Sequence record: MZ375264.1
Origin: Escherichia phage T7
Reading direction: 5' to 3' (one strand)
DNA: 37,892 nucleotides
Shown in pieces: positions 225-32,745 of the stretch (the stretch's first letter is position 1; each line of letters opens with the position of its first letter). The translations under genes were made by a program, and so were the position numbers. Below the pieces are notes generated by a model. That model ran no database searches, had not been told where the DNA came from, and was given only the letters and a program-made list of their open reading frames with translations.

Positions 225-247
225 TAATACAACTCACTATAGGGAGA
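225..247 (+). promoter_or_regulatory. phiOL: T7 RNA polymerase promoter phiOL (TAATACAACTCACTATAGGGAGA), +1 at 242
   Basis: 23-bp match to T7 promoter consensus with A at -11; position matches T7 phiOL (+1 at 405) after a 163-bp offset. Confidence 0.9.
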
Positions 248-2444: not shown

Positions 2445-5096
2445 ATGAACACGATTAACATCGCTAAGAACGACTTCTCTGACATCGAACTGGCTGCTAT
2501 CCCGTTCAACACTCTGGCTGACCATTACGGTGAGCGTTTAGCTCGCGAACAGTTGGCCCTTGAGCATGAGTCTTACGAGATGGGTGAAGCACGCTTCCGC
2601 AAGATGTTTGAGCGTCAACTTAAAGCTGGTGAGGTTGCGGATAACGCTGCCGCCAAGCCTCTCATCACTACCCTACTCCCTAAGATGATTGCACGCATCA
2701 ACGACTGGTTTGAGGAAGTGAAAGCTAAGCGCGGCAAGCGCCCGACAGCCTTCCAGTTCCTGCAAGAAATCAAGCCGGAAGCCGTAGCGTACATCACCAT
2801 TAAGACCACTCTGGCTTGCCTAACCAGTGCTGACAATACAACCGTTCAGGCTGCAGCAAGCGCAATCGGTCGGGCCATTGAGGACGAGGCTCGCTTCGGT
2901 CGTATCCGTGACCTTGAAGCTAAGCACTTCAAGAAAAACGTTGAGGAACAACTCAACAAGCGCGTAGGGCACGTCTACAAGAAAGCATTTATGCGAGTTG
3001 TCGAGGCTGACATGCTCTCTAAGGGTCTACTCGGTGGCGAGGCGTGGTCTTCGTGGCATAAGGAAGACTCTATTCATGTAGGAGTACGCTGCATCGAGAT
3101 GCTCATTGAGTCAACCGGAATGGTTAGCTTACACCGCCAAAATGCTGGCGTAGTAGGTCAAGACTCTGAGACTATCGAACTCGCACCTGAATACGCTGAG
3201 GCTATCGCAACCCGTGCAGGTGCGCTGGCTGGCATCTCTCCGATGTTCCAACCTTGCGTAGTTCCTCCTAAGCCGTGGACTGGCATTACTGGTGGTGGCT
3301 ATTGGGCTAACGGTCGTCGTCCTCTGGCGCTGGTGCGTACTCACAGTAAGAAAGCACTGATGCGCTACGAAGACGTTTACATGCCTGAGGTGTACAAAGC
3401 GATTAACATTGCGCAAAACACCGCATGGAAAATCAACAAGAAAGTCCTAGCGGTCGCCAACGTAATCACCAAGTGGAAGCATTGTCCGGTCGAGGACATC
3501 CCTGCGATTGAGCGTGAAGAACTCCCGATGAAACCGGAAGACATCGACATGAATCCTGAGGCTCTCACCGCGTGGAAACGTGCTGCCGCTGCTGTGTACC
3601 GCAAGGACAAGGCTCGCAAGTCTCGCCGTATCAGCCTTGAGTTCATGCTTGAGCAAGCCAATAAGTTTGCTAACCATAAGGCCATCTGGTTCCCTTACAA
3701 CATGGACTGGCGCGGTCGTGTTTACGCTGTGTCAATGTTCAACCCGCAAGGTAACGATATGACCAAAGGACTGCTTACGCTGGCGAAAGGTAAACCAATC
3801 GGTAAGGAAGGTTACTACTGGCTGAAAATCCACGGTGCAAACTGTGCGGGTGTCGATAAGGTTCCGTTCCCTGAGCGCATCAAGTTCATTGAGGAAAACC
3901 ACGAGAACATCATGGCTTGCGCTAAGTCTCCACTGGAGAACACTTGGTGGGCTGAGCAAGATTCTCCGTTCTGCTTCCTTGCGTTCTGCTTTGAGTACGC
4001 TGGGGTACAGCACCACGGCCTGAGCTATAACTGCTCCCTTCCGCTGGCGTTTGACGGGTCTTGCTCTGGCATCCAGCACTTCTCCGCGATGCTCCGAGAT
4101 GAGGTAGGTGGTCGCGCGGTTAACTTGCTTCCTAGTGAAACCGTTCAGGACATCTACGGGATTGTTGCTAAGAAAGTCAACGAGATTCTACAAGCAGACG
4201 CAATCAATGGGACCGATAACGAAGTAGTTACCGTGACCGATGAGAACACTGGTGAAATCTCTGAGAAAGTCAAGCTGGGCACTAAGGCACTGGCTGGTCA
4301 ATGGCTGGCTTACGGTGTTACTCGCAGTGTGACTAAGCGTTCAGTCATGACGCTGGCTTACGGGTCCAAAGAGTTCGGCTTCCGTCAACAAGTGCTGGAA
4401 GATACCATTCAGCCAGCTATTGATTCCGGCAAGGGTCTGATGTTCACTCAGCCGAATCAGGCTGCTGGATACATGGCTAAGCTGATTTGGGAATCTGTGA
4501 GCGTGACGGTGGTAGCTGCGGTTGAAGCAATGAACTGGCTTAAGTCTGCTGCTAAGCTGCTGGCTGCTGAGGTCAAAGATAAGAAGACTGGAGAGATTCT
4601 TCGCAAGCGTTGCGCTGTGCATTGGGTAACTCCTGATGGTTTCCCTGTGTGGCAGGAATACAAGAAGCCTATTCAGACGCGCTTGAACCTGATGTTCCTC
4701 GGTCAGTTCCGCTTACAGCCTACCATTAACACCAACAAAGATAGCGAGATTGATGCACACAAACAGGAGTCTGGTATCGCTCCTAACTTTGTACACAGCC
4801 AAGACGGTAGCCACCTTCGTAAGACTGTAGTGTGGGCACACGAGAAGTACGGAATCGAATCTTTTGCACTGATTCACGACTCCTTCGGTACCATTCCGGC
4901 TGACGCTGCGAACCTGTTCAAAGCAGTGCGCGAAACTATGGTTGACACATATGAGTCTTGTGATGTACTGGCTGATTTCTACGACCAGTTCGCTGACCAG
5001 TTGCACGAGTCTCAATTGGACAAAATGCCAGCACTTCCGGCTAAAGGTAACTTGAACCTCCGTGACATCTTAGAGTCGGACTTCGCGTTCGCGTAA
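2445..5096 (+). CDS. 1: Gene 1 T7 RNA polymerase, 883 aa
   Basis: ORF 2445-5096; catalytic D537 (AFDGSCSG) and H811/D812 (IHDSFG), Y639 (LAYGSKEF), specificity loop with R746, N748, R756, Q758 all present; ends FAFA. Confidence 0.98.
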   Translation: MNTINIAKNDFSDIELAAIPFNTLADHYGERLAREQLALEHESYEMGEARFRKMFERQLKAGEVADNAAAKPLITTLLPKMIARINDWFEEVKAKRGKRPTAFQFLQEIKPEAVAYITIKTTLACLTSADNTTVQAAASAIGRAIEDEARFGRIRDLEAKHFKKNVEEQLNKRVGHVYKKAFMRVVEADMLSKGLLGGEAWSSWHKEDSIHVGVRCIEMLIESTGMVSLHRQNAGVVGQDSETIELAPEYAEAIATRAGALAGISPMFQPCVVPPKPWTGITGGGYWANGRRPLALVRTHSKKALMRYEDVYMPEVYKAINIAQNTAWKINKKVLAVANVITKWKHCPVEDIPAIEREELPMKPEDIDMNPEALTAWKRAAAAVYRKDKARKSRRISLEFMLEQANKFANHKAIWFPYNMDWRGRVYAVSMFNPQGNDMTKGLLTLAKGKPIGKEGYYWLKIHGANCAGVDKVPFPERIKFIEENHENIMACAKSPLENTWWAEQDSPFCFLAFCFEYAGVQHHGLSYNCSLPLAFDGSCSGIQHFSAMLRDEVGGRAVNLLPSETVQDIYGIVAKKVNEILQADAINGTDNEVVTVTDENTGEISEKVKLGTKALAGQWLAYGVTRSVTKRSVMTLAYGSKEFGFRQQVLEDTIQPAIDSGKGLMFTQPNQAAGYMAKLIWESVSVTVVAAVEAMNWLKSAAKLLAAEVKDKKTGEILRKRCAVHWVTPDGFPVWQEYKKPIQTRLNLMFLGQFRLQPTINTNKDSEIDAHKQESGIAPNFVHSQDGSHLRKTVVWAHEKYGIESFALIHDSFGTIPADAANLFKAVRETMVDTYESCDVLADFYDQFADQLHESQLDKMPALPAKGNLNLRDILESDFAFA

Positions 5097-6863: not shown

Positions 6864-6878
6864 TTTATAAGGAGACAC

Positions 6879-6901
6879 TTTTACGACTCACTAAAGGAGG
6901 T
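6879..6901 (+). promoter_or_regulatory. phi1.5: T7 promoter phi1.5 with altered upstream edge (TTTTACGACTCACTAAAGGAGG), +1 at 6896
   Basis: Core CGACTCACTAAAGGAGG intact, but positions -16 and -15 read TT instead of the consensus AA because the sequence joins directly to the gene 1.3/TE downstream region. Confidence 0.75.
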
Positions 6902-6908
6902 ACACACC

Positions 6909-7284: not shown

Positions 7285-7866
7285 TGGGACTGTTAGATGG
7301 TGAAGCCTGGGAAAAAGAAAACCCGCCAGTACAAGCAACTGGGTGTATAGCTTGCTTAGAGAAAGATGACCGTTATCCACACACCTGTAACAAAGGAGCT
7401 AACGATATGACCGAACGTGAACAAGAGATGATCATTAAGTTGATAGACAATAATGAAGGTCGCCCAGATGATTTGAATGGCTGCGGTATTCTCTGCTCCA
7501 ATGTCCCTTGCCACCTCTGCCCCGCAAATAACGATCAAAAGATAACCTTAGGTGAAATCCGAGCGATGGACCCACGTAAACCACATCTGAATAAACCTGA
7601 GGTAACTCCTACAGATGACCAGCCTTCCGCTGAGACAATCGAAGGTGTCACTAAGCCTTCCCACTACATGCTGTTTGACGACATTGAGGCTATCGAAGTG
7701 ATTGCTCGTTCAATGACCGTTGAGCAGTTCAAGGGATACTGCTTCGGTAACATCTTAAAGTACAGACTACGTGCTGGTAAGAAGTCAGAGTTAGCGTACT
7801 TAGAGAAAGACCTAGCGAAAGCAGACTTCTATAAAGAACTCTTTGAGAAACATAAGGATAAATGTT

Positions 7867-8974: not shown

Positions 8975-9394
8975 GTGGAACTGCGGGAGAAAATCCTTGA
9001 GCGAATCAAGGTGACTTCCTCTGGGTGTTGGGAGTGGCAGGGCGCTACGAACAATAAAGGGTACGGGCAGGTGTGGTGCAGCAATACCGGAAAGGTTGTC
9101 TACTGTCATCGCGTAATGTCTAATGCTCCGAAAGGTTCTACCGTCCTGCACTCCTGTGATAATCCATTATGTTGTAACCCTGAACACCGTTCCATAGGAA
9201 CTCCAAAAGAGAACTCCACTGACATGGTAAATAAGGGTCGCTCACACAAGGGGTATAAACTTTCAGACGAAGACGTAATGGCAATCATGGAGTCCAGCGA
9301 GTCCAATGTATCCTTAGCTCGCACCTATGGTGTCTCCCAACAGACTATTTGTGATATACGCAAAGGGAGGCGACATGGCAGGTTACGGCGCTAA
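8975..9394 (+). CDS. 2.8: Gene 2.8, HNH endonuclease-like protein, 139 aa, GTG start
   Basis: ORF 8975-9394; motif HSCDNPLCCNPEHRSIGTPKENSTDMVNKGR shared with gene 7.7. Confidence 0.85.
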   Translation: MELREKILERIKVTSSGCWEWQGATNNKGYGQVWCSNTGKVVYCHRVMSNAPKGSTVLHSCDNPLCCNPEHRSIGTPKENSTDMVNKGRSHKGYKLSDEDVMAIMESSESNVSLARTYGVSQQTICDIRKGRRHGRLRR

Positions 9395-12864: not shown

Positions 12865-14979
12865 ATGATCGTTTCTGACATCGAAGCTAACGCCCTCTTA
12901 GAGAGCGTCACTAAGTTCCACTGCGGGGTTATCTACGACTACTCCACCGCTGAGTACGTAAGCTACCGTCCGAGTGACTTCGGTGCGTATCTGGATGCGC
13001 TGGAAGCCGAGGTTGCACGAGGCGGTCTTATTGTGTTCCACAACGGTCACAAGTATGACGTTCCTGCATTGACCAAACTGGCAAAGTTGCAATTGAACCG
13101 AGAGTTCCACCTTCCTCGTGAGAACTGTATTGACACCCTTGTGTTGTCACGTTTGATTCATTTCAACCTCAAGGACACCGATATGGGTCTTCTGCGTTCC
13201 GGCAAGTTGCCCGGAAAACGCTTTGGGTCTCACGCTTTGGAGGCGTGGGGTTATCGCTTAGGCGAGATGAAGGGTGAATACAAAGACGACTTTAAGCGTA
13301 TGCTTGAAGAGCAGGGTGAAGAATACGTTGACGGAATGGAGTGGTGGAACTTCAACGAAGAGATGATGGACTATAACGTTCAGGACGTTGTGGTAACTAA
13401 AGCTCTCCTTGAGAAGCTACTCTCTGACAAACATTACTTCCCTCCTGAGATTGACTTTACGGACGTAGGATACACTACGTTCTGGTCAGAATCCCTTGAG
13501 GCCGTTGACATTGAACATCGTGCTGCATGGCTGCTCGCTAAACAAGAGCGCAACGGGTTCCCGTTTGACACAAAAGCAATCGAAGAGTTGTACGTAGAGT
13601 TAGCTGCTCGCCGCTCTGAGTTGCTCCGTAAATTGACCGAAACGTTCGGCTCGTGGTATCAGCCTAAAGGTGGCACTGAGATGTTCTGCCATCCGCGAAC
13701 AGGTAAGCCACTACCTAAATACCCTCGCATTAAGACACCTAAAGTTGGTGGTATCTTTAAGAAGCCTAAGAACAAGGCACAGCGAGAAGGCCGTGAGCCT
13801 TGCGAACTTGATACCCGCGAGTACGTTGCTGGTGCTCCTTACACCCCAGTTGAACATGTTGTGTTTAACCCTTCGTCTCGTGACCACATTCAGAAGAAAC
13901 TCCAAGAGGCTGGGTGGGTCCCGACCAAGTACACCGATAAGGGTGCTCCTGTGGTGGACGATGAGGTACTCGAAGGAGTACGTGTAGATGACCCTGAGAA
14001 GCAAGCCGCTATCGACCTCATTAAAGAGTACTTGATGATTCAGAAGCGAATCGGACAGTCTGCTGAGGGAGACAAAGCATGGCTTCGTTATGTTGCTGAG
14101 GATGGTAAGATTCATGGTTCTGTTAACCCTAATGGAGCAGTTACGGGTCGTGCGACCCATGCGTTCCCAAACCTTGCGCAAATTCCGGGTGTACGTTCTC
14201 CTTATGGAGAGCAGTGTCGCGCTGCTTTTGGCGCTGAGCACCATTTGGATGGGATAACTGGTAAGCCTTGGGTTCAGGCTGGCATCGACGCATCCGGTCT
14301 TGAGCTACGCTGCTTGGCTCACTTCATGGCTCGCTTTGATAACGGCGAGTACGCTCACGAGATTCTTAACGGCGACATCCACACTAAGAACCAGATAGCT
14401 GCTGAACTACCTACCCGAGATAACGCTAAGACGTTCATCTATGGGTTCCTCTATGGTGCTGGTGATGAGAAGATTGGACAGATTGTTGGTGCTGGTAAAG
14501 AGCGCGGTAAGGAACTCAAGAAGAAATTCCTTGAGAACACCCCCGCGATTGCAGCACTCCGCGAGTCTATCCAACAGACACTTGTCGAGTCCTCTCAATG
14601 GGTAGCTGGTGAGCAACAAGTCAAGTGGAAACGCCGCTGGATTAAAGGTCTGGATGGTCGTAAGGTACACGTTCGTAGTCCTCACGCTGCCTTGAATACC
14701 CTACTGCAATCTGCTGGTGCTCTCATCTGCAAACTGTGGATTATCAAGACCGAAGAGATGCTCGTAGAGAAAGGCTTGAAGCATGGCTGGGATGGGGACT
14801 TTGCGTACATGGCATGGGTACATGATGAAATCCAAGTAGGCTGCCGTACCGAAGAGATTGCTCAGGTGGTCATTGAGACCGCACAAGAAGCGATGCGCTG
14901 GGTTGGAGACCACTGGAACTTCCGGTGTCTTCTGGATACCGAAGGTAAGATGGGTCCTAATTGGGCGATTTGCCACTGA
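12865..14979 (+). CDS. 5: Gene 5 DNA polymerase, 704 aa
   Basis: ATG 12865 ([15 protein letters not shown]..., exonuclease D5/E7) inside ORF-track entry 12718-14979; family A polymerase. Confidence 0.98.
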
Positions 14980-15691: not shown

Positions 15692-16580
15692 CCTTAAACA
15701 ATTCTATGAGTTACGTGAAGGCTGCGACGACAAGGGTATCCTTGTGATGGACGGCGACTGGCTGGTCTTCCAAGCTATGAGTGCTGCTGAGTTTGATGCC
15801 TCTTGGGAGGAAGAGATTTGGCACCGATGCTGTGACCACGCTAAGGCCCGTCAGATTCTTGAGGATTCCATTAAGTCCTACGAGACCCGTAAGAAGGCTT
15901 GGGCAGGTGCTCCAATTGTCCTTGCGTTCACCGATAGTGTTAACTGGCGTAAAGAACTGGTTGACCCGAACTATAAGGCTAACCGTAAGGCCGTGAAGAA
16001 ACCTGTAGGGTACTTTGAGTTCCTTGATGCTCTCTTTGAGCGCGAAGAGTTCTATTGCATCCGTGAGCCTATGCTTGAGGGTGATGACGTTATGGGAGTT
16101 ATTGCTTCCAATCCGTCTGCCTTCGGTGCTCGTAAGGCTGTAATCATCTCTTGCGATAAGGACTTTAAGACCATCCCTAACTGTGACTTCCTGTGGTGTA
16201 CCACTGGTAACATCCTGACTCAGACCGAAGAGTCCGCTGACTGGTGGCACCTCTTCCAGACCATCAAGGGTGACATCACTGATGGTTACTCAGGGATTGC
16301 TGGATGGGGTGATACCGCCGAGGACTTCTTGAATAACCCGTTCATAACCGAGCCTAAAACGTCTGTGCTTAAGTCCGGTAAGAACAAAGGCCAAGAGGTT
16401 ACTAAATGGGTTAAACGCGACCCTGAGCCTCATGAGACGCTTTGGGACTGCATTAAGTCCATTGGCGCGAAGGCTGGTATGACCGAAGAGGATATTATCA
16501 AGCAGGGCCAAATGGCTCGAATCCTACGGTTCAACGAGTACAACTTTATTGACAAGGAGATTTACCTGTGGAGACCGTAG
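15678..16580 (+). CDS. 6: Gene 6 5'-3' exonuclease, 300 aa
   Basis: ORF 15678-16580. Confidence 0.97.
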   Translation: MALLDLKQFYELREGCDDKGILVMDGDWLVFQAMSAAEFDASWEEEIWHRCCDHAKARQILEDSIKSYETRKKAWAGAPIVLAFTDSVNWRKELVDPNYKANRKAVKKPVGYFEFLDALFEREEFYCIREPMLEGDDVMGVIASNPSAFGARKAVIISCDKDFKTIPNCDFLWCTTGNILTQTEESADWWHLFQTIKGDITDGYSGIAGWGDTAEDFLNNPFITEPKTSVLKSGKNKGQEVTKWVKRDPEPHETLWDCIKSIGAKAGMTEEDIIKQGQMARILRFNEYNFIDKEIYLWRP

Positions 16581-16681
16581 CGTATATTGGTCTGGGTCTT
16601 TGTGTTCTCGGAGTGTGCCTCATTTCGTGGGGCCTTTGGGACTTAGCCAGAATAATCAAGTCGTTACACGACACTAAGTGA
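16568..16681 (+). CDS. 6.3: Gene 6.3, 37 aa, GTG start
   Basis: GTG 16568 to TGA 16681, hydrophobic peptide; position matches T7 gene 6.3. Confidence 0.5.
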   Translation: METVAYIGLGLCVLGVCLISWGLWDLARIIKSLHDTK

Positions 16682-16701
16682 TAAACTCAAGGTCCCTAAA
16701 T

Positions 16702-16724
16702 TAATACGACTCACTATAGGGAGA
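16702..16724 (+). promoter_or_regulatory. phi6.5: T7 class III promoter phi6.5, exact consensus TAATACGACTCACTATAGGGAGA, +1 at 16719
   Basis: Exact 23-bp consensus. Confidence 0.97.
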
Positions 16725-16778
16725 TAGGGGCCTTTACGATTATTACTTTAAGATTTAACTCTAAGAGGAATCTTTATT

Positions 16779-17033
16779 ATGTTAACACCTATTAACCAAT
16801 TACTTAAGAACCCTAACGATATTCCAGATGTACCTCGTGCAACCGCTGAGTATCTACAGGTTCGATTCAACTATGCGTACCTCGAAGCGTCTGGTCATAT
16901 AGGACTTATGCGTGCTAATGGTTGTAGTGAGGCCCACATCTTGGGTTTCATTCAGGGCCTACAGTATGCCTCTAACGTCATTGACGAGATTGAGTTACGC
17001 AAGGAACAACTAAGAGATGATGGGGAGGATTGA
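16779..17033 (+). CDS. 6.5: Gene 6.5, 84 aa
   Basis: ORF 16779-17033. Confidence 0.9.
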
Positions 17034-18414: not shown

Positions 18415-20024
18415 TGGCTGAGAAACGAACAGGACTTGCGGAGGATGGCGCAAAGTCTGTCTATGAGCGTTTAAAGAACGACCGTGCTCCCTATGAGACA
18501 CGCGCTCAGAATTGCGCTCAATATACCATCCCATCATTGTTCCCTAAGGACTCCGATAACGCCTCTACAGATTATCAAACTCCGTGGCAAGCCGTGGGCG
18601 CTCGTGGTCTGAACAATCTAGCCTCTAAGCTCATGCTGGCTCTATTCCCTATGCAGACTTGGATGCGACTTACTATATCTGAATATGAAGCAAAGCAGTT
18701 ACTGAGCGACCCCGATGGACTCGCTAAGGTCGATGAGGGCCTCTCGATGGTAGAGCGTATCATCATGAACTACATTGAGTCTAACAGTTACCGCGTGACT
18801 CTCTTTGAGGCTCTCAAACAGTTAGTCGTAGCTGGTAACGTCCTGCTGTACCTACCGGAACCGGAAGGGTCAAACTATAATCCCATGAAGCTGTACCGAT
18901 TGTCTTCTTATGTGGTCCAACGAGACGCATTCGGCAACGTTCTGCAAATGGTGACTCGTGACCAGATAGCTTTTGGTGCTCTCCCTGAGGACATCCGTAA
19001 GGCTGTAGAAGGTCAAGGTGGTGAGAAGAAAGCTGATGAGACAATCGACGTGTACACTCACATCTATCTGGATGAGGACTCAGGTGAATACCTCCGATAC
19101 GAAGAGGTCGAGGGTATGGAAGTCCAAGGCTCCGATGGGACTTATCCTAAAGAGGCTTGCCCATACATCCCGATTCGGATGGTCAGACTAGATGGTGAAT
19201 CCTACGGTCGTTCGTACATTGAGGAATACTTAGGTGACTTACGGTCCCTTGAAAATCTCCAAGAGGCTATCGTCAAGATGTCCATGATTAGCTCTAAGGT
19301 TATCGGCTTAGTGAATCCTGCTGGTATCACCCAGCCACGCCGACTGACCAAAGCTCAGACTGGTGACTTCGTTACTGGTCGTCCAGAAGACATCTCGTTC
19401 CTCCAACTGGAGAAGCAAGCAGACTTTACTGTAGCTAAAGCCGTAAGTGACGCTATCGAGGCTCGCCTTTCGTTTGCCTTTATGTTGAACTCTGCGGTTC
19501 AGCGTACAGGTGAACGTGTGACCGCCGAAGAGATTCGGTATGTAGCTTCTGAACTTGAAGATACTTTAGGTGGTGTCTACTCTATCCTTTCTCAAGAATT
19601 ACAATTGCCTCTGGTACGAGTGCTCTTGAAGCAACTACAAGCCACGCAACAGATTCCTGAGTTACCTAAGGAAGCCGTAGAGCCAACCATTAGTACAGGT
19701 CTGGAAGCAATTGGTCGAGGACAAGACCTTGATAAGCTGGAGCGGTGTGTCACTGCGTGGGCTGCACTGGCACCTATGCGGGACGACCCTGATATTAACC
19801 TTGCGATGATTAAGTTACGTATTGCCAACGCTATCGGTATTGACACTTCTGGTATTCTACTCACCGAAGAACAGAAGCAACAGAAGATGGCCCAACAGTC
19901 TATGCAAATGGGTATGGATAATGGTGCTGCTGCGCTGGCTCAAGGTATGGCTGCACAAGCTACAGCTTCACCTGAGGCTATGGCTGCTGCCGCTGATTCC
20001 GTAGGTTTACAGCCGGGAATTTAA
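18414..20024 (+). CDS. 8: Gene 8 head-tail connector (portal) protein, 536 aa
   Basis: ATG 18414 overlapping the 7.7 stop (TAATG); ORF-track entry 18399-20024. Confidence 0.97.
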   Translation: MAEKRTGLAEDGAKSVYERLKNDRAPYETRAQNCAQYTIPSLFPKDSDNASTDYQTPWQAVGARGLNNLASKLMLALFPMQTWMRLTISEYEAKQLLSDPDGLAKVDEGLSMVERIIMNYIESNSYRVTLFEALKQLVVAGNVLLYLPEPEGSNYNPMKLYRLSSYVVQRDAFGNVLQMVTRDQIAFGALPEDIRKAVEGQGGEKKADETIDVYTHIYLDEDSGEYLRYEEVEGMEVQGSDGTYPKEACPYIPIRMVRLDGESYGRSYIEEYLGDLRSLENLQEAIVKMSMISSKVIGLVNPAGITQPRRLTKAQTGDFVTGRPEDISFLQLEKQADFTVAKAVSDAIEARLSFAFMLNSAVQRTGERVTAEEIRYVASELEDTLGGVYSILSQELQLPLVRVLLKQLQATQQIPELPKEAVEPTISTGLEAIGRGQDLDKLERCVTAWAALAPMRDDPDINLAMIKLRIANAIGIDTSGILLTEEQKQQKMAQQSMQMGMDNGAAALAQGMAAQATASPEAMAAAADSVGLQPGI

Positions 20025-20044
20025 TACGACTCACTATAGGGAGA
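20022..20044 (+). promoter_or_regulatory. phi9: T7 class III promoter phi9, exact consensus, +1 at 20039
   Basis: Exact 23-bp consensus overlapping the gene 8 stop. Confidence 0.97.
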
Positions 20045-21047: not shown

Positions 21048-21060
21048 TAGACTTCGAAAT

Positions 21061-21083
21061 TAATACGACTCACTATATGGAGA
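21061..21083 (+). promoter_or_regulatory. phi10: T7 class III promoter phi10 with T instead of G at +1 (TAATACGACTCACTATATGGAGA)
   Basis: Positions -17 to -1 match the consensus; +1 (21078) is T; downstream leader CCACAACGGTTTCCCTCTAGAAATAATTTTGTTTAACTTTAAGAAGGAGATATACAT is the canonical gene 10 leader. Confidence 0.9.
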
Positions 21084-21140
21084 CCACAACGGTTTCCCTC
21101 TAGAAATAATTTTGTTTAACTTTAAGAAGGAGATATACAT

Positions 21141-22178
21141 ATGGCTAGCATGACTGGTGGACAGCAAATGGGTACTAACCAAGGTAAAGGTGTAGTTGCT
21201 GCTGGAGATAAACTGGCGTTGTTCTTGAAGGTATTTGGCGGTGAAGTCCTGACTGCGTTCGCTCGTACCTCCGTGACCACTTCTCGCCACATGGTACGTT
21301 CCATCTCCAGCGGTAAATCCGCTCAGTTCCCTGTTCTGGGTCGCACTCAGGCAGCGTATCTGGCTCCGGGCGAGAACCTCGACGATAAACGTAAGGACAT
21401 CAAACACACCGAGAAGGTAATCACCATTGACGGTCTCCTGACGGCTGACGTTCTGATTTATGATATTGAGGACGCGATGAACCACTACGACGTTCGCTCT
21501 GAGTATACCTCTCAGTTGGGTGAATCTCTGGCGATGGCTGCGGATGGTGCGGTTCTGGCTGAGATTGCCGGTCTGTGTAACGTGGAAAGCAAATATAATG
21601 AGAACATCGAGGGCTTAGGTACTGCTACCGTAATTGAGACCACTCAGAACAAGGCCGCACTTACCGACCAAGTTGCGCTGGGTAAGGAGATTATTGCGGC
21701 TCTGACTAAGGCTCGTGCGGCTCTGACCAAGAACTATGTTCCGGCTGCTGACCGTGTGTTCTACTGTGACCCAGATAGCTACTCTGCGATTCTGGCAGCA
21801 CTGATGCCGAACGCAGCAAACTACGCTGCTCTGATTGACCCTGAGAAGGGTTCTATCCGCAACGTTATGGGCTTTGAGGTTGTAGAAGTTCCGCACCTCA
21901 CCGCTGGTGGTGCTGGTACCGCTCGTGAGGGCACTACTGGTCAGAAGCACGTCTTCCCTGCCAATAAAGGTGAGGGTAATGTCAAGGTTGCTAAGGACAA
22001 CGTTATCGGCCTGTTCATGCACCGCTCTGCGGTAGGTACTGTTAAGCTGCGTGACTTGGCTCTGGAGCGCGCTCGCCGTGCTAACTTACAAGCGGACCAG
22101 ATTATCGCTAAGTACGCAATGGGCCACGGTGGTCTTCGCCCAGAAGCTGCTGGTGCAGTGGTTTTCAAAGTGGAGTAA
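21141..22178 (+). CDS. 10A: Gene 10A major capsid protein, 345 aa
   Basis: ORF 21141-22178, MASMTGGQQMG... N-terminus. Confidence 0.99.
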   Translation: MASMTGGQQMGTNQGKGVVAAGDKLALFLKVFGGEVLTAFARTSVTTSRHMVRSISSGKSAQFPVLGRTQAAYLAPGENLDDKRKDIKHTEKVITIDGLLTADVLIYDIEDAMNHYDVRSEYTSQLGESLAMAADGAVLAEIAGLCNVESKYNENIEGLGTATVIETTQNKAALTDQVALGKEIIAALTKARAALTKNYVPAADRVFYCDPDSYSAILAALMPNAANYAALIDPEKGSIRNVMGFEVVEVPHLTAGGAGTAREGTTGQKHVFPANKGEGNVKVAKDNVIGLFMHRSAVGTVKLRDLALERARRANLQADQIIAKYAMGHGGLRPEAAGAVVFKVE

Positions 22179-22401: not shown

Positions 22402-22992
22402 ATGCGCTCATACGATATGAACGTTGAGACTGCCGCTGAGTTATCAGCTGTGAACGACATTCTGGCGTCTATCGGTGAACCTCCGGTATCAACGCTGGAA
22501 GGTGACGCTAACGCAGATGCAGCGAACGCTCGGCGTATTCTCAACAAGATTAACCGACAGATTCAATCTCGTGGATGGACGTTCAACATTGAGGAAGGCA
22601 TAACGCTACTACCTGATGTTTACTCCAACCTGATTGTATACAGTGACGACTATTTATCCCTAATGTCTACTTCCGGTCAATCCATCTACGTTAACCGAGG
22701 TGGCTATGTGTATGACCGAACGAGTCAATCAGACCGCTTTGACTCTGGTATTACTGTGAACATTATTCGTCTCCGCGACTACGATGAGATGCCTGAGTGC
22801 TTCCGTTACTGGATTGTCACCAAGGCTTCCCGTCAGTTCAACAACCGATTCTTTGGGGAACCGGAAGTAGAGGGTGTACTCCAAGAAGAGGAAGATGAGG
22901 CTAGACGTCTCTGCATGGAGTATGAGATGGACTACGGTGGGTACAATATGCTGGATGGAGATGCGTTCACTTCTGGTCTACTGACTCGCTAA
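22402..22992 (+). CDS. 11: Gene 11 tail tubular protein A, 196 aa
   Basis: ORF 22402-22992. Confidence 0.97.
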
Positions 22993-31700: not shown

Positions 31701-32725
31701 AACTGGCTGCTCGCTCTCCGTGGACTAAGCTACTGAACGGAACCACTAACTACCTTCTGGATGCTGCGCGTCAAGGTATGCTTGGGGATGTTATTAGTGC
31801 CACCCTAACAGGTAAGACTACCCGCTGGGAGAAAGAAGGCTTCCTTCGTGGTGCCTCCGTAACTCCTGAGCAGATGGCTGGCATCAAGTCTCTCATCAAG
31901 GAACATATGGTACGCGGTGAGGACGGGAAGTTTACCGTTAAGGACAAGCAAGCGTTCTCTATGGACCCACGGGCTATGGACTTATGGAGACTGGCTGACA
32001 AGGTAGCTGATGAGGCAATGCTGCGTCCACATAAGGTGTCCTTACAGGATTCCCATGCGTTCGGAGCACTAGGTAAGATGGTTATGCAGTTTAAGTCTTT
32101 CACTATCAAGTCCCTTAACTCTAAGTTCCTGCGAACCTTCTATGATGGATACAAGAACAACCGAGCGATTGACGCTGCGCTGAGCATCATCACCTCTATG
32201 GGTCTCGCTGGTGGTTTCTATGCTATGGCTGCACACGTCAGAGCATACGCTCTGCCTAAGGAGAAACGTAAGGAGTACTTGGAGCGTGCACTGGACCCAA
32301 CCATGATTGCCCACGCTGCGTTATCTCGTAGTTCTCAATTGGGTGTTCCTTTGGCTATGGTTGACCTAGTTGGTGGTGTTTTAGGGTTCGAGTCCTCCAA
32401 GATGGCTCGCTCTACGATTCTACCTAAGGACACCGTGAAGGAACGTGACCCAAACAAACCGTACACCTCTAGAGAGGTAATGGGCGCTATGGGTTCAAAC
32501 CTTCTGGAACAGATGCCTTCGGCTGGCTTTGTGGCTAACGTAGGGGCTACCTTAATGAATGCTGCTGGCGTGGTCAACTCACCTAATAAAGCAACCGAGC
32601 AGGACTTCATGACTGGTCTTATGAACTCCACAAAAGAGTTAGTACCGAACGACCCATTGACTCAACAGCTTGTGTTGAAGATTTATGAGGCGAACGGTGT
32701 TAACTTGAGGGAGCGTAGGAAATAA
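28769..32725 (+). CDS. 16: Gene 16 internal core protein with N-terminal lytic transglycosylase domain, 1318 aa
   Basis: ORF 28769-32725; N-terminal SLT-like motif (WTESRF ... GPLGMMQF). Confidence 0.97.
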   Translation: MDKYDKNVPSDYDGLFQKAADANGVSYDLLRKVAWTESRFVPTAKSKTGPLGMMQFTKATAKALGLRVTDGPDDDRLNPELAINAAAKQLAGLVGKFDGDELKAALAYNQGEGRLGNPQLEAYSKGDFASISEEGRNYMRNLLDVAKSPMAGQLETFGGITPKGKGIPAEVGLAGIGHKQKVTQELPESTSFDVKGIEQEATAKPFAKDFWETHGETLDEYNSRSTFFGFKNAAEAELSNSVAGMAFRAGRLDNGFDVFKDTITPTRWNSHIWTPEELEKIRTEVKNPAYINVVTGGSPENLDDLIKLANENFENDSRAAEAGLGAKLSAGIIGAGVDPLSYVPMVGVTGKGFKLINKALVVGAESAALNVASEGLRTSVAGGDADYAGAALGGFVFGAGMSAISDAVAAGLKRSKPEAEFDNEFIGPMMRLEARETARNANSADLSRMNTENMKFEGEHNGVPYEDLPTERGAVVLHDGSVLSASNPINPKTLKEFSEVDPEKAARGIKLAGFTEIGLKTLGSDDADIRRVAIDLVRSPTGMQSGASGKFGATASDIHERLHGTDQRTYNDLYKAMSDAMKDPEFSTGGAKMSREETRYTIYRRAALAIERPELQKALTPSERIVMDIIKRHFDTKRELMENPAIFGNTKAVSIFPESRHKGTYVPHVYDRHAKALMIQRYGAEGLQEGIARSWMNSYVSRPEVKARVDEMLKELHGVKEVTPEMVEKYAMDKAYGISHSDQFTNSSIIEENIEGLVGIENNSFLEARNLFDSDLSITMPDGQQFSVNDLRDFDMFRIMPAYDRCVNGDIAIMGSTGKTTKELKDEILALKAKAEGDGKKTGEVHALMDTVKILTGRARRNQDTVWETSLRAINDLGFFAKNAYMGAQNITEIAGMIVTGNVRALGHGIPILRDTLYKSKPVSAKELKELHASLFGKEVDQLIRPKRADIVQRLREATDTGPAVANIVGTLKYSTQELAARSPWTKLLNGTTNYLLDAARQGMLGDVISATLTGKTTRWEKEGFLRGASVTPEQMAGIKSLIKEHMVRGEDGKFTVKDKQAFSMDPRAMDLWRLADKVADEAMLRPHKVSLQDSHAFGALGKMVMQFKSFTIKSLNSKFLRTFYDGYKNNRAIDAALSIITSMGLAGGFYAMAAHVRAYALPKEKRKEYLERALDPTMIAHAALSRSSQLGVPLAMVDLVGGVLGFESSKMARSTILPKDTVKERDPNKPYTSREVMGAMGSNLLEQMPSAGFVANVGATLMNAAGVVNSPNKATEQDFMTGLMNSTKELVPNDPLTQQLVLKIYEANGVNLRERRK

Positions 32726-32745
32726 TACAACTCACTATAGGGAGA
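32723..32745 (+). promoter_or_regulatory. phi17: T7 class III promoter phi17 with A instead of G at -11 (TAATACAACTCACTATAGGGAGA), +1 at 32740
   Basis: 23-mer matches the consensus except position 32729; overlaps the gene 16 stop. Confidence 0.85.

Follow-up and report, generated by a model that had tools for sequence, protein, structure and literature searches.

A G-to-T change at the transcription start of the capsid promoter phi10 in a laboratory-evolved, genome-reduced bacteriophage T7

Background

The capsid promoter phi10 is the textbook strong promoter of bacteriophage T7, the one used in pET vectors, and the G at its +1 position is regarded as obligatory. In the genome analysed here (hereafter the window, that is, the whole stretch of DNA, 37,892 bp), this position is occupied by T. 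The locus raises the question of whether the T is a real mutation, what it does to the transcription of the major capsid gene and how it came to be there.

Results and discussion

Origin of the genome

The window is a complete T7 genome with deletions and 22 point changes relative to the reference sequence V01146. In reference coordinates, the deletions are 99-116 (in both terminal repeats), 195-331, 1353-1903 (genes 0.4-0.6), 7608-7763 (gene 1.4), 13353-13547 (gene 4.3), 13927-14334 (gene 4.7), 16483-16820 (gene 5.3) and 39429-39608 (gene 19.5). The nearest relatives are the records MZ375233-MZ375294, ‘Mutant Escherichia phage T7 clone T7_nL/S’. The window is a laboratory-evolved, genome-reduced T7 of the CiPGr serial-transfer series (PMC9825161) and is probably clone T7_160S; clone names are read from the accession order, taken as the transfer number, a correspondence that was checked at 13 records. 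In CiPGr (CRISPR/Cas9-based iterative genome reduction), the phage went through 300 passages on E. coli MG1655 with Cas9, lambda-Red and guide libraries, and one large-plaque and one small-plaque clone were sequenced per ten transfers (PMC9825161). The same study notes ‘unexpected’ point mutations, with Ka/Ks above 1, and no mention of promoter mutations was found in its text (PMC9825161). In the panel comparison of 13 genomes, the SNP counts are 25 for the window, 24 for T7_140L and 26 for T7_170L, in keeping with the T7_160S assignment.

The 18-bp deletion (reference 99-116) is the same in both terminal repeats, with junctions at window 98/99 and 37849/37850, and the deletion of 195-331 (window about 175), which is common to T7_200S, takes out the leftward A0 promoter region. 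The phi1.5 promoter (window 6875-6905) loses its first three bases to the gene 1.4 deletion, and the junction rebuilds TTTTACGACTCACTAAAGGAGGT, effectively A>T changes at -16 and -15, which reportedly have little effect. Gene 3.8 carries a nonsense change, S56* (window 10509; reference 11391 C>A), that is common to 130L and 140L, the region being deleted instead in other clones. An adjacent double change in gene 2.8 (window 9189-9190; L72R plus a third-position change) is common to many clones and may be Cas9-related. The capsid substitution F316L (Table 1) is private to this clone.

The phi10 site

The phi10 site (Table 1) reads TAATACGACTCACTATATGGAGA. Alignment to V01146 places its +1 T against a G of wild-type T7, at a position annotated ‘T7 promoter phi10’ in that record, and over 120 nt (reference 22857-22976, comprising the promoter, the leader, the ribosome-binding site and the ATG) this is the sole difference. 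Thus, both the presence of T instead of G and the integrity of positions -17 to -1, the leader and the ribosome-binding site, as described in an earlier note that was made from the sequence alone, are confirmed. Considered element by element against the class III promoters, the binding element (-17 to -5) is an exact match to TAATACGACTCAC (window 21061-21073), and the unwinding element (-4 to -1) is TATA (window 21074-21077), but the initially transcribed sequence (+1 to +6) departs from the class, being TGGAGA rather than GGGAGA.

A mismatch-tolerant scan of the window identifies ten T7-type promoter sites, six of which are of the class III consensus type. The +1 change is found at phi10 only; TATAGGGAGA is kept at the other class III-type sites, all five of which retain GGGAGA. 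The description of the G as invariant in the earlier note is slightly overstated given that, among the 17 wild-type T7 promoters, phiOL and phi2.5 begin with A, but T at +1 is absent from all of them.

It is virtually certain that the T is a real heritable mutation. The probability that it results from a sequencing or assembly error appears negligible: 34 sibling genomes, each assembled independently, also have the T, and its appearance over the transfers is coherent, whereas five other promoters that are identical from -17 to +6 show no such change.

Table 1. Coordinates of the phi10 region and of other relevant features in the window
Feature	Window coordinates	Strand	Remarks
phiOL promoter with +1 A>G	225..247	+	change at window 242; becomes consensus GGGAGA; since about transfer 30
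Gene 1 (T7 RNA polymerase)	2445..5096	+	V137A at window 2854, Q184R at window 2995
phi6.5 promoter	16702..16724	+	consensus; second upstream read-through source for gene 10 (PMC6068830)
phi9 promoter	20022..20044	+	consensus in this clone; read-through source for gene 10 (by the logic of PMC6068830)
phi10, class III promoter, -17 to +6	21061..21083	+	consensus from -17 to -1, TGGAGA from +1
G>T transversion, phi10 +1	21078	+	reference 22904; in 34 sibling clones and EFA-2
Predicted 5'-terminal hairpin of gene 10 mRNA from the +2 G	21079..21097	+	7 bp, -9.7 kcal/mol
Gene 10 leader	21079..21140	+	same as wild type; ribosome-binding site AAGGAG at 21127-21132
Gene 10A (major capsid protein), coding sequence	21141..22178	+	F316L at window 22088
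phi17 promoter with -11 G>A	32723..32745	+	change at window 32729; private to this clone

Rise of the T allele

The distribution of the allele was analysed with an allele-specific megablast search in which the 53-nt query is centred on the SNP, such that every 28-mer seed spans the variant base. The search yields T-allele matches in 34 records of the CiPGr series and in one unrelated phage. When the clones are arranged by transfer, T is found in 0/22 clones from transfers 10-110, in 8/11 from transfers 120-170 (9/12 if the window is T7_160S) and in 25/26 from transfers 180-300, a rise followed by maintenance in a non-random sample, for at each time point two clones had been picked for sequencing on the basis of their plaque size and killing phenotype, and the counts are not unbiased allele frequencies. 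The T originated between transfers 110 and 120, spread over several deletion backgrounds to about 96% of the sequenced clones from transfers 180-300 and supplanted a competing lineage whose marker is phi9 -6 A>G.

When first detected, the T allele is already present on two different deletion backgrounds, those of 120L and 120S. In the 13-genome panel, no other SNP shows perfect linkage with phi10 +1T, and 29 of the 50 shared SNPs form all four gametes with it, which indicates that the population is recombining. The allele spread independently of the genetic background, and given the recombination and the several deletion backgrounds, simple clonal hitchhiking explains its rise poorly.

Alternative changes in the scaffold and capsid signals

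Four clones from transfers 120-300 (140L, 150L, 170L and 220S) lack the T, and each of these carries another change in the scaffold/capsid expression signals. One such change, A>G at position -6 of phi9 (reference 21859), is present in 140L, 150L and 170L as well as in T7_100L.2 (transfer 100 by name) and OL964739/40, and is never seen together with phi10 +1T. The probability of finding all three clones with phi9 -6G within the set of four non-T clones is 4/7770 (about 5e-4), a value that is indicative only, the clones being non-independent. The other change is T>C just 5' of the gene 10 ATG (reference 22966, position -1), which is found in 170L, 220S, 230S, 250L and OL964740/41; 250L carries both this change and phi10 +1T. 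Taken together, phi9 -6 A>G, the T>C at 22966 and phi10 +1T form a pattern that looks like competing solutions acting on scaffold/capsid expression.

The promoters, 17 sites of 23 bp each, make up about 1% of the genome, and point changes are enriched in them, both in the window (3/22 SNPs, P = 0.0013, ~14-fold) and in the 13-genome panel (7/111 distinct sites, P = 1.2e-4, ~6-fold). The seven promoter sites in the panel are phiOL +1 and -11, phi9 -6, phi10 +1 and -11, phi13 -11 and phi17 -11. The +1 A>G change in phiOL dates back to about transfer 30 and is shared by 55 records. Candidates for parallel changes are the T in EFA-2 (see below), the phi9 and gene 10 leader changes in the siblings and the phi10 changes in AY264778, an independently evolved T7 isolate (P82); CiPGr itself is one replicate population. 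In AY264778 (21967-22139), phi10 carries C>T changes at -9 and -5, two positions that are reported to be critical, and this phi10 is probably inactive.

The -11 G>A change seen at phi17 of the window recurs at phi13 in 130L, 200S and 220S and at phi10 in 250L, and the reverse change, -11 A>G, occurs at phiOL in 130L and 170L. These recurrent swaps could be due to a mutational hotspot, to selection or to gene conversion between phiOL and the class III promoters. Gene conversion is a possible source of the -11 changes, phiOL naturally having A at -11 and A at +1. As a source of phi10 +1T, conversion from another T7 promoter was rejected, there being no T7 promoter with T at +1.

Occurrence in natural phages

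The one match outside the CiPGr series is ‘Enterococcus phage EFA-2’ (MT350293), a T7-like genome with about 92% identity to T7 and a full T7-type promoter set; the recorded Enterococcus host is doubtful for such a genome. The phi10 of EFA-2 is TATATGGAGACC, with T at +1, so that the homologous promoters of EFA-2 and of the window contain the identical TATATGGAGACCACAACGG, and the EFA-2 equivalents of phi6.5, phi9, phi13, phi17 and phiOR are exact consensus. Unlike the window, EFA-2 is a separate phage of independent origin and has extra differences in the leader. The base at phi10 +1 is G at 11/11 IMG/VR loci and in about 135 phage records with the same flanks, and no non-G base was found at this position in metagenome contigs. 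A common natural polymorphism was rejected on these counts, EFA-2 being the sole exception. Thus, T at phi10 +1 is rare in nature, where G is clearly preferred, but it is not unique to CiPGr.

Predicted effect on transcription

Because the mutation leaves both the binding element (-17 to -5) and the TATA unwinding element as they are, the mutant phi10 would be expected to be still bound and opened by T7 RNA polymerase. The polymerase starts mostly with GTP (PMC11617373), and given its strong preference for GTP in de novo initiation, the +2 G, which lies one base further downstream, would most likely become the start. When the consensus promoter was subjected to saturation mutagenesis, variants with C or T at +1 kept high activity in vitro (PMC7948468), and the authors, who follow Imburgio et al. 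2000 on this point, suggest that such variants start at +2 instead of +1. The expectation, expressed in the earlier note, that the change would lower or shift initiation is in keeping with these data, and we regard a shift to +2 in the mutant phi10 as rather likely. In the same mutagenesis, -11 G>A is without effect and position -6 prefers a purine (PMC7948468).

With such a shift, the mutant mRNA would be pppGGAGACC..., one nucleotide shorter than that of the wild type and without the GGG run that promotes slippage and the formation of oligo(G) abortive products. Substitution of the +1 G has been found to cause 5' heterogeneity, and the heterogeneity of GGG starts is about 45% and that of GGA starts <1.5% (PMC3683919), and the abortive oligo(G) RNAs from phi10 antiterminate T-phi (PMC2952870). 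The 5' hairpin predicted for the wild-type gene 10 mRNA consists of 8 bp (-13.4 kcal/mol); the loss of this stabilising structure was discounted as an effect of the mutation because 7 of the 8 base pairs are predicted to remain with the +2 start. The G>T change also makes an ATG at 21077-21079 that opens an 8-codon reading frame, METTTVSL* (window 21077-21103), in read-through transcripts only. A relevant effect of this new upstream frame was judged unlikely, there being no upstream Shine-Dalgarno sequence.

The net output of phi10 would probably be modestly changed, a reduction being likeliest when promoters compete for the polymerase. Templates with fewer 5' Gs are under-represented in pooled, competitive transcription (PMC11974757), and the mutant phi10 would be somewhat less competitive for the polymerase, not silenced; on balance, we lean slightly toward a lowered output. 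Complete ablation of phi10 has only a moderate fitness cost, with read-through from the upstream promoters (PMC6068830), and in the evolved phage gene 10 transcripts would still be supplied by the shifted phi10 and, through read-through, by the phi6.5 and phi9 promoters.

Comparison with known promoters

Compared with the wild-type phi10, i.e., the pET promoter, the window phi10 is the same locus with the same -17 to -1 region, leader, ribosome-binding site and gene 10, and differs in having T instead of G at +1 and, accordingly, TGGAGA instead of GGGAGA. Synthetic +1 variants (Imburgio et al. 2000 via PMC7948468 and PMC3683919; Kartje et al. 2021) contain the same change in the same consensus. 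They are reported to keep their activity and to show 5' heterogeneity, and a shift to +2 has been offered as the explanation. However, the synthetic variants were assayed in vitro on reporter templates, whereas the T of the window arose spontaneously in its natural setting and became widespread as the phage population evolved.

The phi10 (and phi9) knockouts of Paff et al. 2018 (PMC6068830) perturb the same promoter, and these phages are viable at a moderate cost, with gene 10 expressed by read-through. In the knockouts, 18-23 bp were replaced, the promoter was abolished and fitness was lower; the window, in contrast, has a single-base change that probably leaves the promoter active, and the allele became more frequent. 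The natural, weaker class II promoters phi1.6 and phi4.3 (TAATACGACTCACTAAAGGAGAC) have a transcript start, GGAGAC, like that of the mutant phi10 if the latter starts at +2, but in these promoters the G lies at the canonical distance from the binding element, whereas in the mutant phi10 it is one base farther away.

Selection and alternative explanations

The observations are best compatible, with fair though incomplete confidence, with phi10 +1T acting in cis to tune scaffold/capsid expression and having been favoured under the CiPGr conditions, or at any rate not selected against, and we give similar credence to the +1 base having been selected directly. The earlier note proposed attenuation or adaptive tuning. 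The rise of the allele in a recombining population, from 0/22 to 25/26 clones, along with its occurrence in EFA-2, does not favour attenuation and points to a tolerated or selected tuning change. In the wild-type background, lowered transcription of gene 10 reduced fitness (PMC6068830), so that the benefit of a down-mutation is not obvious, and since +1T causes no loss of activity in vitro (PMC7948468), the change could be nearly neutral. Alternatively, the T might be a passenger, either neutral or slightly harmful, whose start shift to +2 matters little and which rose by drift, through bottlenecks or by nearby linkage. We assign a rather low probability to this explanation, which is the main rival to tuning; +1T has little effect in vitro, and the sampling of clones is biased, just two phenotype-selected clones having been sequenced per time point. 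The Cas9 selection in serial transfer brings strong bottlenecks and sweeps (PMC9825161), and linkage to a selected site inside the same recombination block is possible. A passenger is, however, less easily reconciled with the absence of any perfectly linked SNP and the four-gamete pattern at more than half of the shared SNPs, with the several deletion backgrounds from first detection on, with the mutual exclusion between T and phi9 -6 A>G and the alternative changes in the same expression signals, with the enrichment of promoter sites among the SNPs, and with the independent presence of the same base at the same site in EFA-2.

A further possible explanation lies in the polymerase. As stated in the earlier note, the specificity-loop residues R746, N748, R756 and Q758 as well as K172 and R173 are wild type in gene 1; no obvious compensating change was seen there, but the polymerase is not wild type throughout, as it carries V137A and Q184R. 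The latter substitution dates, like phiOL +1 A>G, from about transfer 30, precedes phi10 +1T and has been fixed since; if it changed initiation or promoter escape, the promoters might have been re-optimised, and phi10 +1T would be a compensatory change. V137A followed at about transfer 130; all panel clones with -11 G>A in phi10, phi13 or phi17 have it, as do the independently evolved T7 lines AY264777 and AY264778. Further gene 1 substitutions, R96C, E245G, S767R and P862S, are found in later sibling clones. Nevertheless, such compensation seems improbable: we know of no contact between residues 137 or 184 and the initiating nucleotide, the +1 change affects only phi10 of the six consensus promoters, and EFA-2 has the T without any link to the CiPGr lineage. 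Even less credible, to the point of being very unlikely, is escape from CRISPR-Cas9, whereby the mutation would abolish an AGG PAM (protospacer 21057-21076) or create a mismatch 12 nt from a CGG PAM (protospacer 21070-21089). The required PAM/protospacer geometry is present, with TCACTATAGGGAGACCACAA or AAATTAATACGACTCACTAT as candidate spacer sequences, and about 23.5% of the T7 point mutations are located in spacer or PAM regions (PMC9825161). However, the guides were designed within genes chosen for deletion (PMC9825161), whereas phi10 lies in the intergenic stretch that separates genes 9 and 10; the protospacer with the AGG PAM is common to all consensus promoters, the others of which are unchanged; and the same base is found in EFA-2, which is unconnected to the Cas9 experiment.

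Conclusions

The finding itself concerns one base of a laboratory strain, and the change has biochemical precedent. That a +1T variant can be made and assayed in vitro was already known; what appears to be new, no mention having been found in PMC9825161, is that this variant emerged spontaneously and came close to fixation in evolving T7, that it competed with a phi9 variant and that a natural relative has it too. A non-G start site arose spontaneously and outcompeted the wild-type allele over 300 transfers, which implies that the start site of the capsid promoter is evolvable and tunable in vivo. More speculatively, phi10 +1T could be one visible piece of a continuing co-evolution, in genome-reduced phage, of T7 RNA polymerase with the promoters that it uses, a reading that we put forward only tentatively and under which the start-site and -11 positions may be repeatedly retuned by selection, rebalancing late transcription. 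If so, +1T would be a truly beneficial allele of the capsid promoter that was also reached by nature in EFA-2. Given the enrichment of changes in promoters, the deposited CiPGr genomes may represent an unexploited record of polymerase-promoter co-evolution, one that bears on phage genome design, on attenuation strategies based on promoter ablation and on the engineering of T7 expression.
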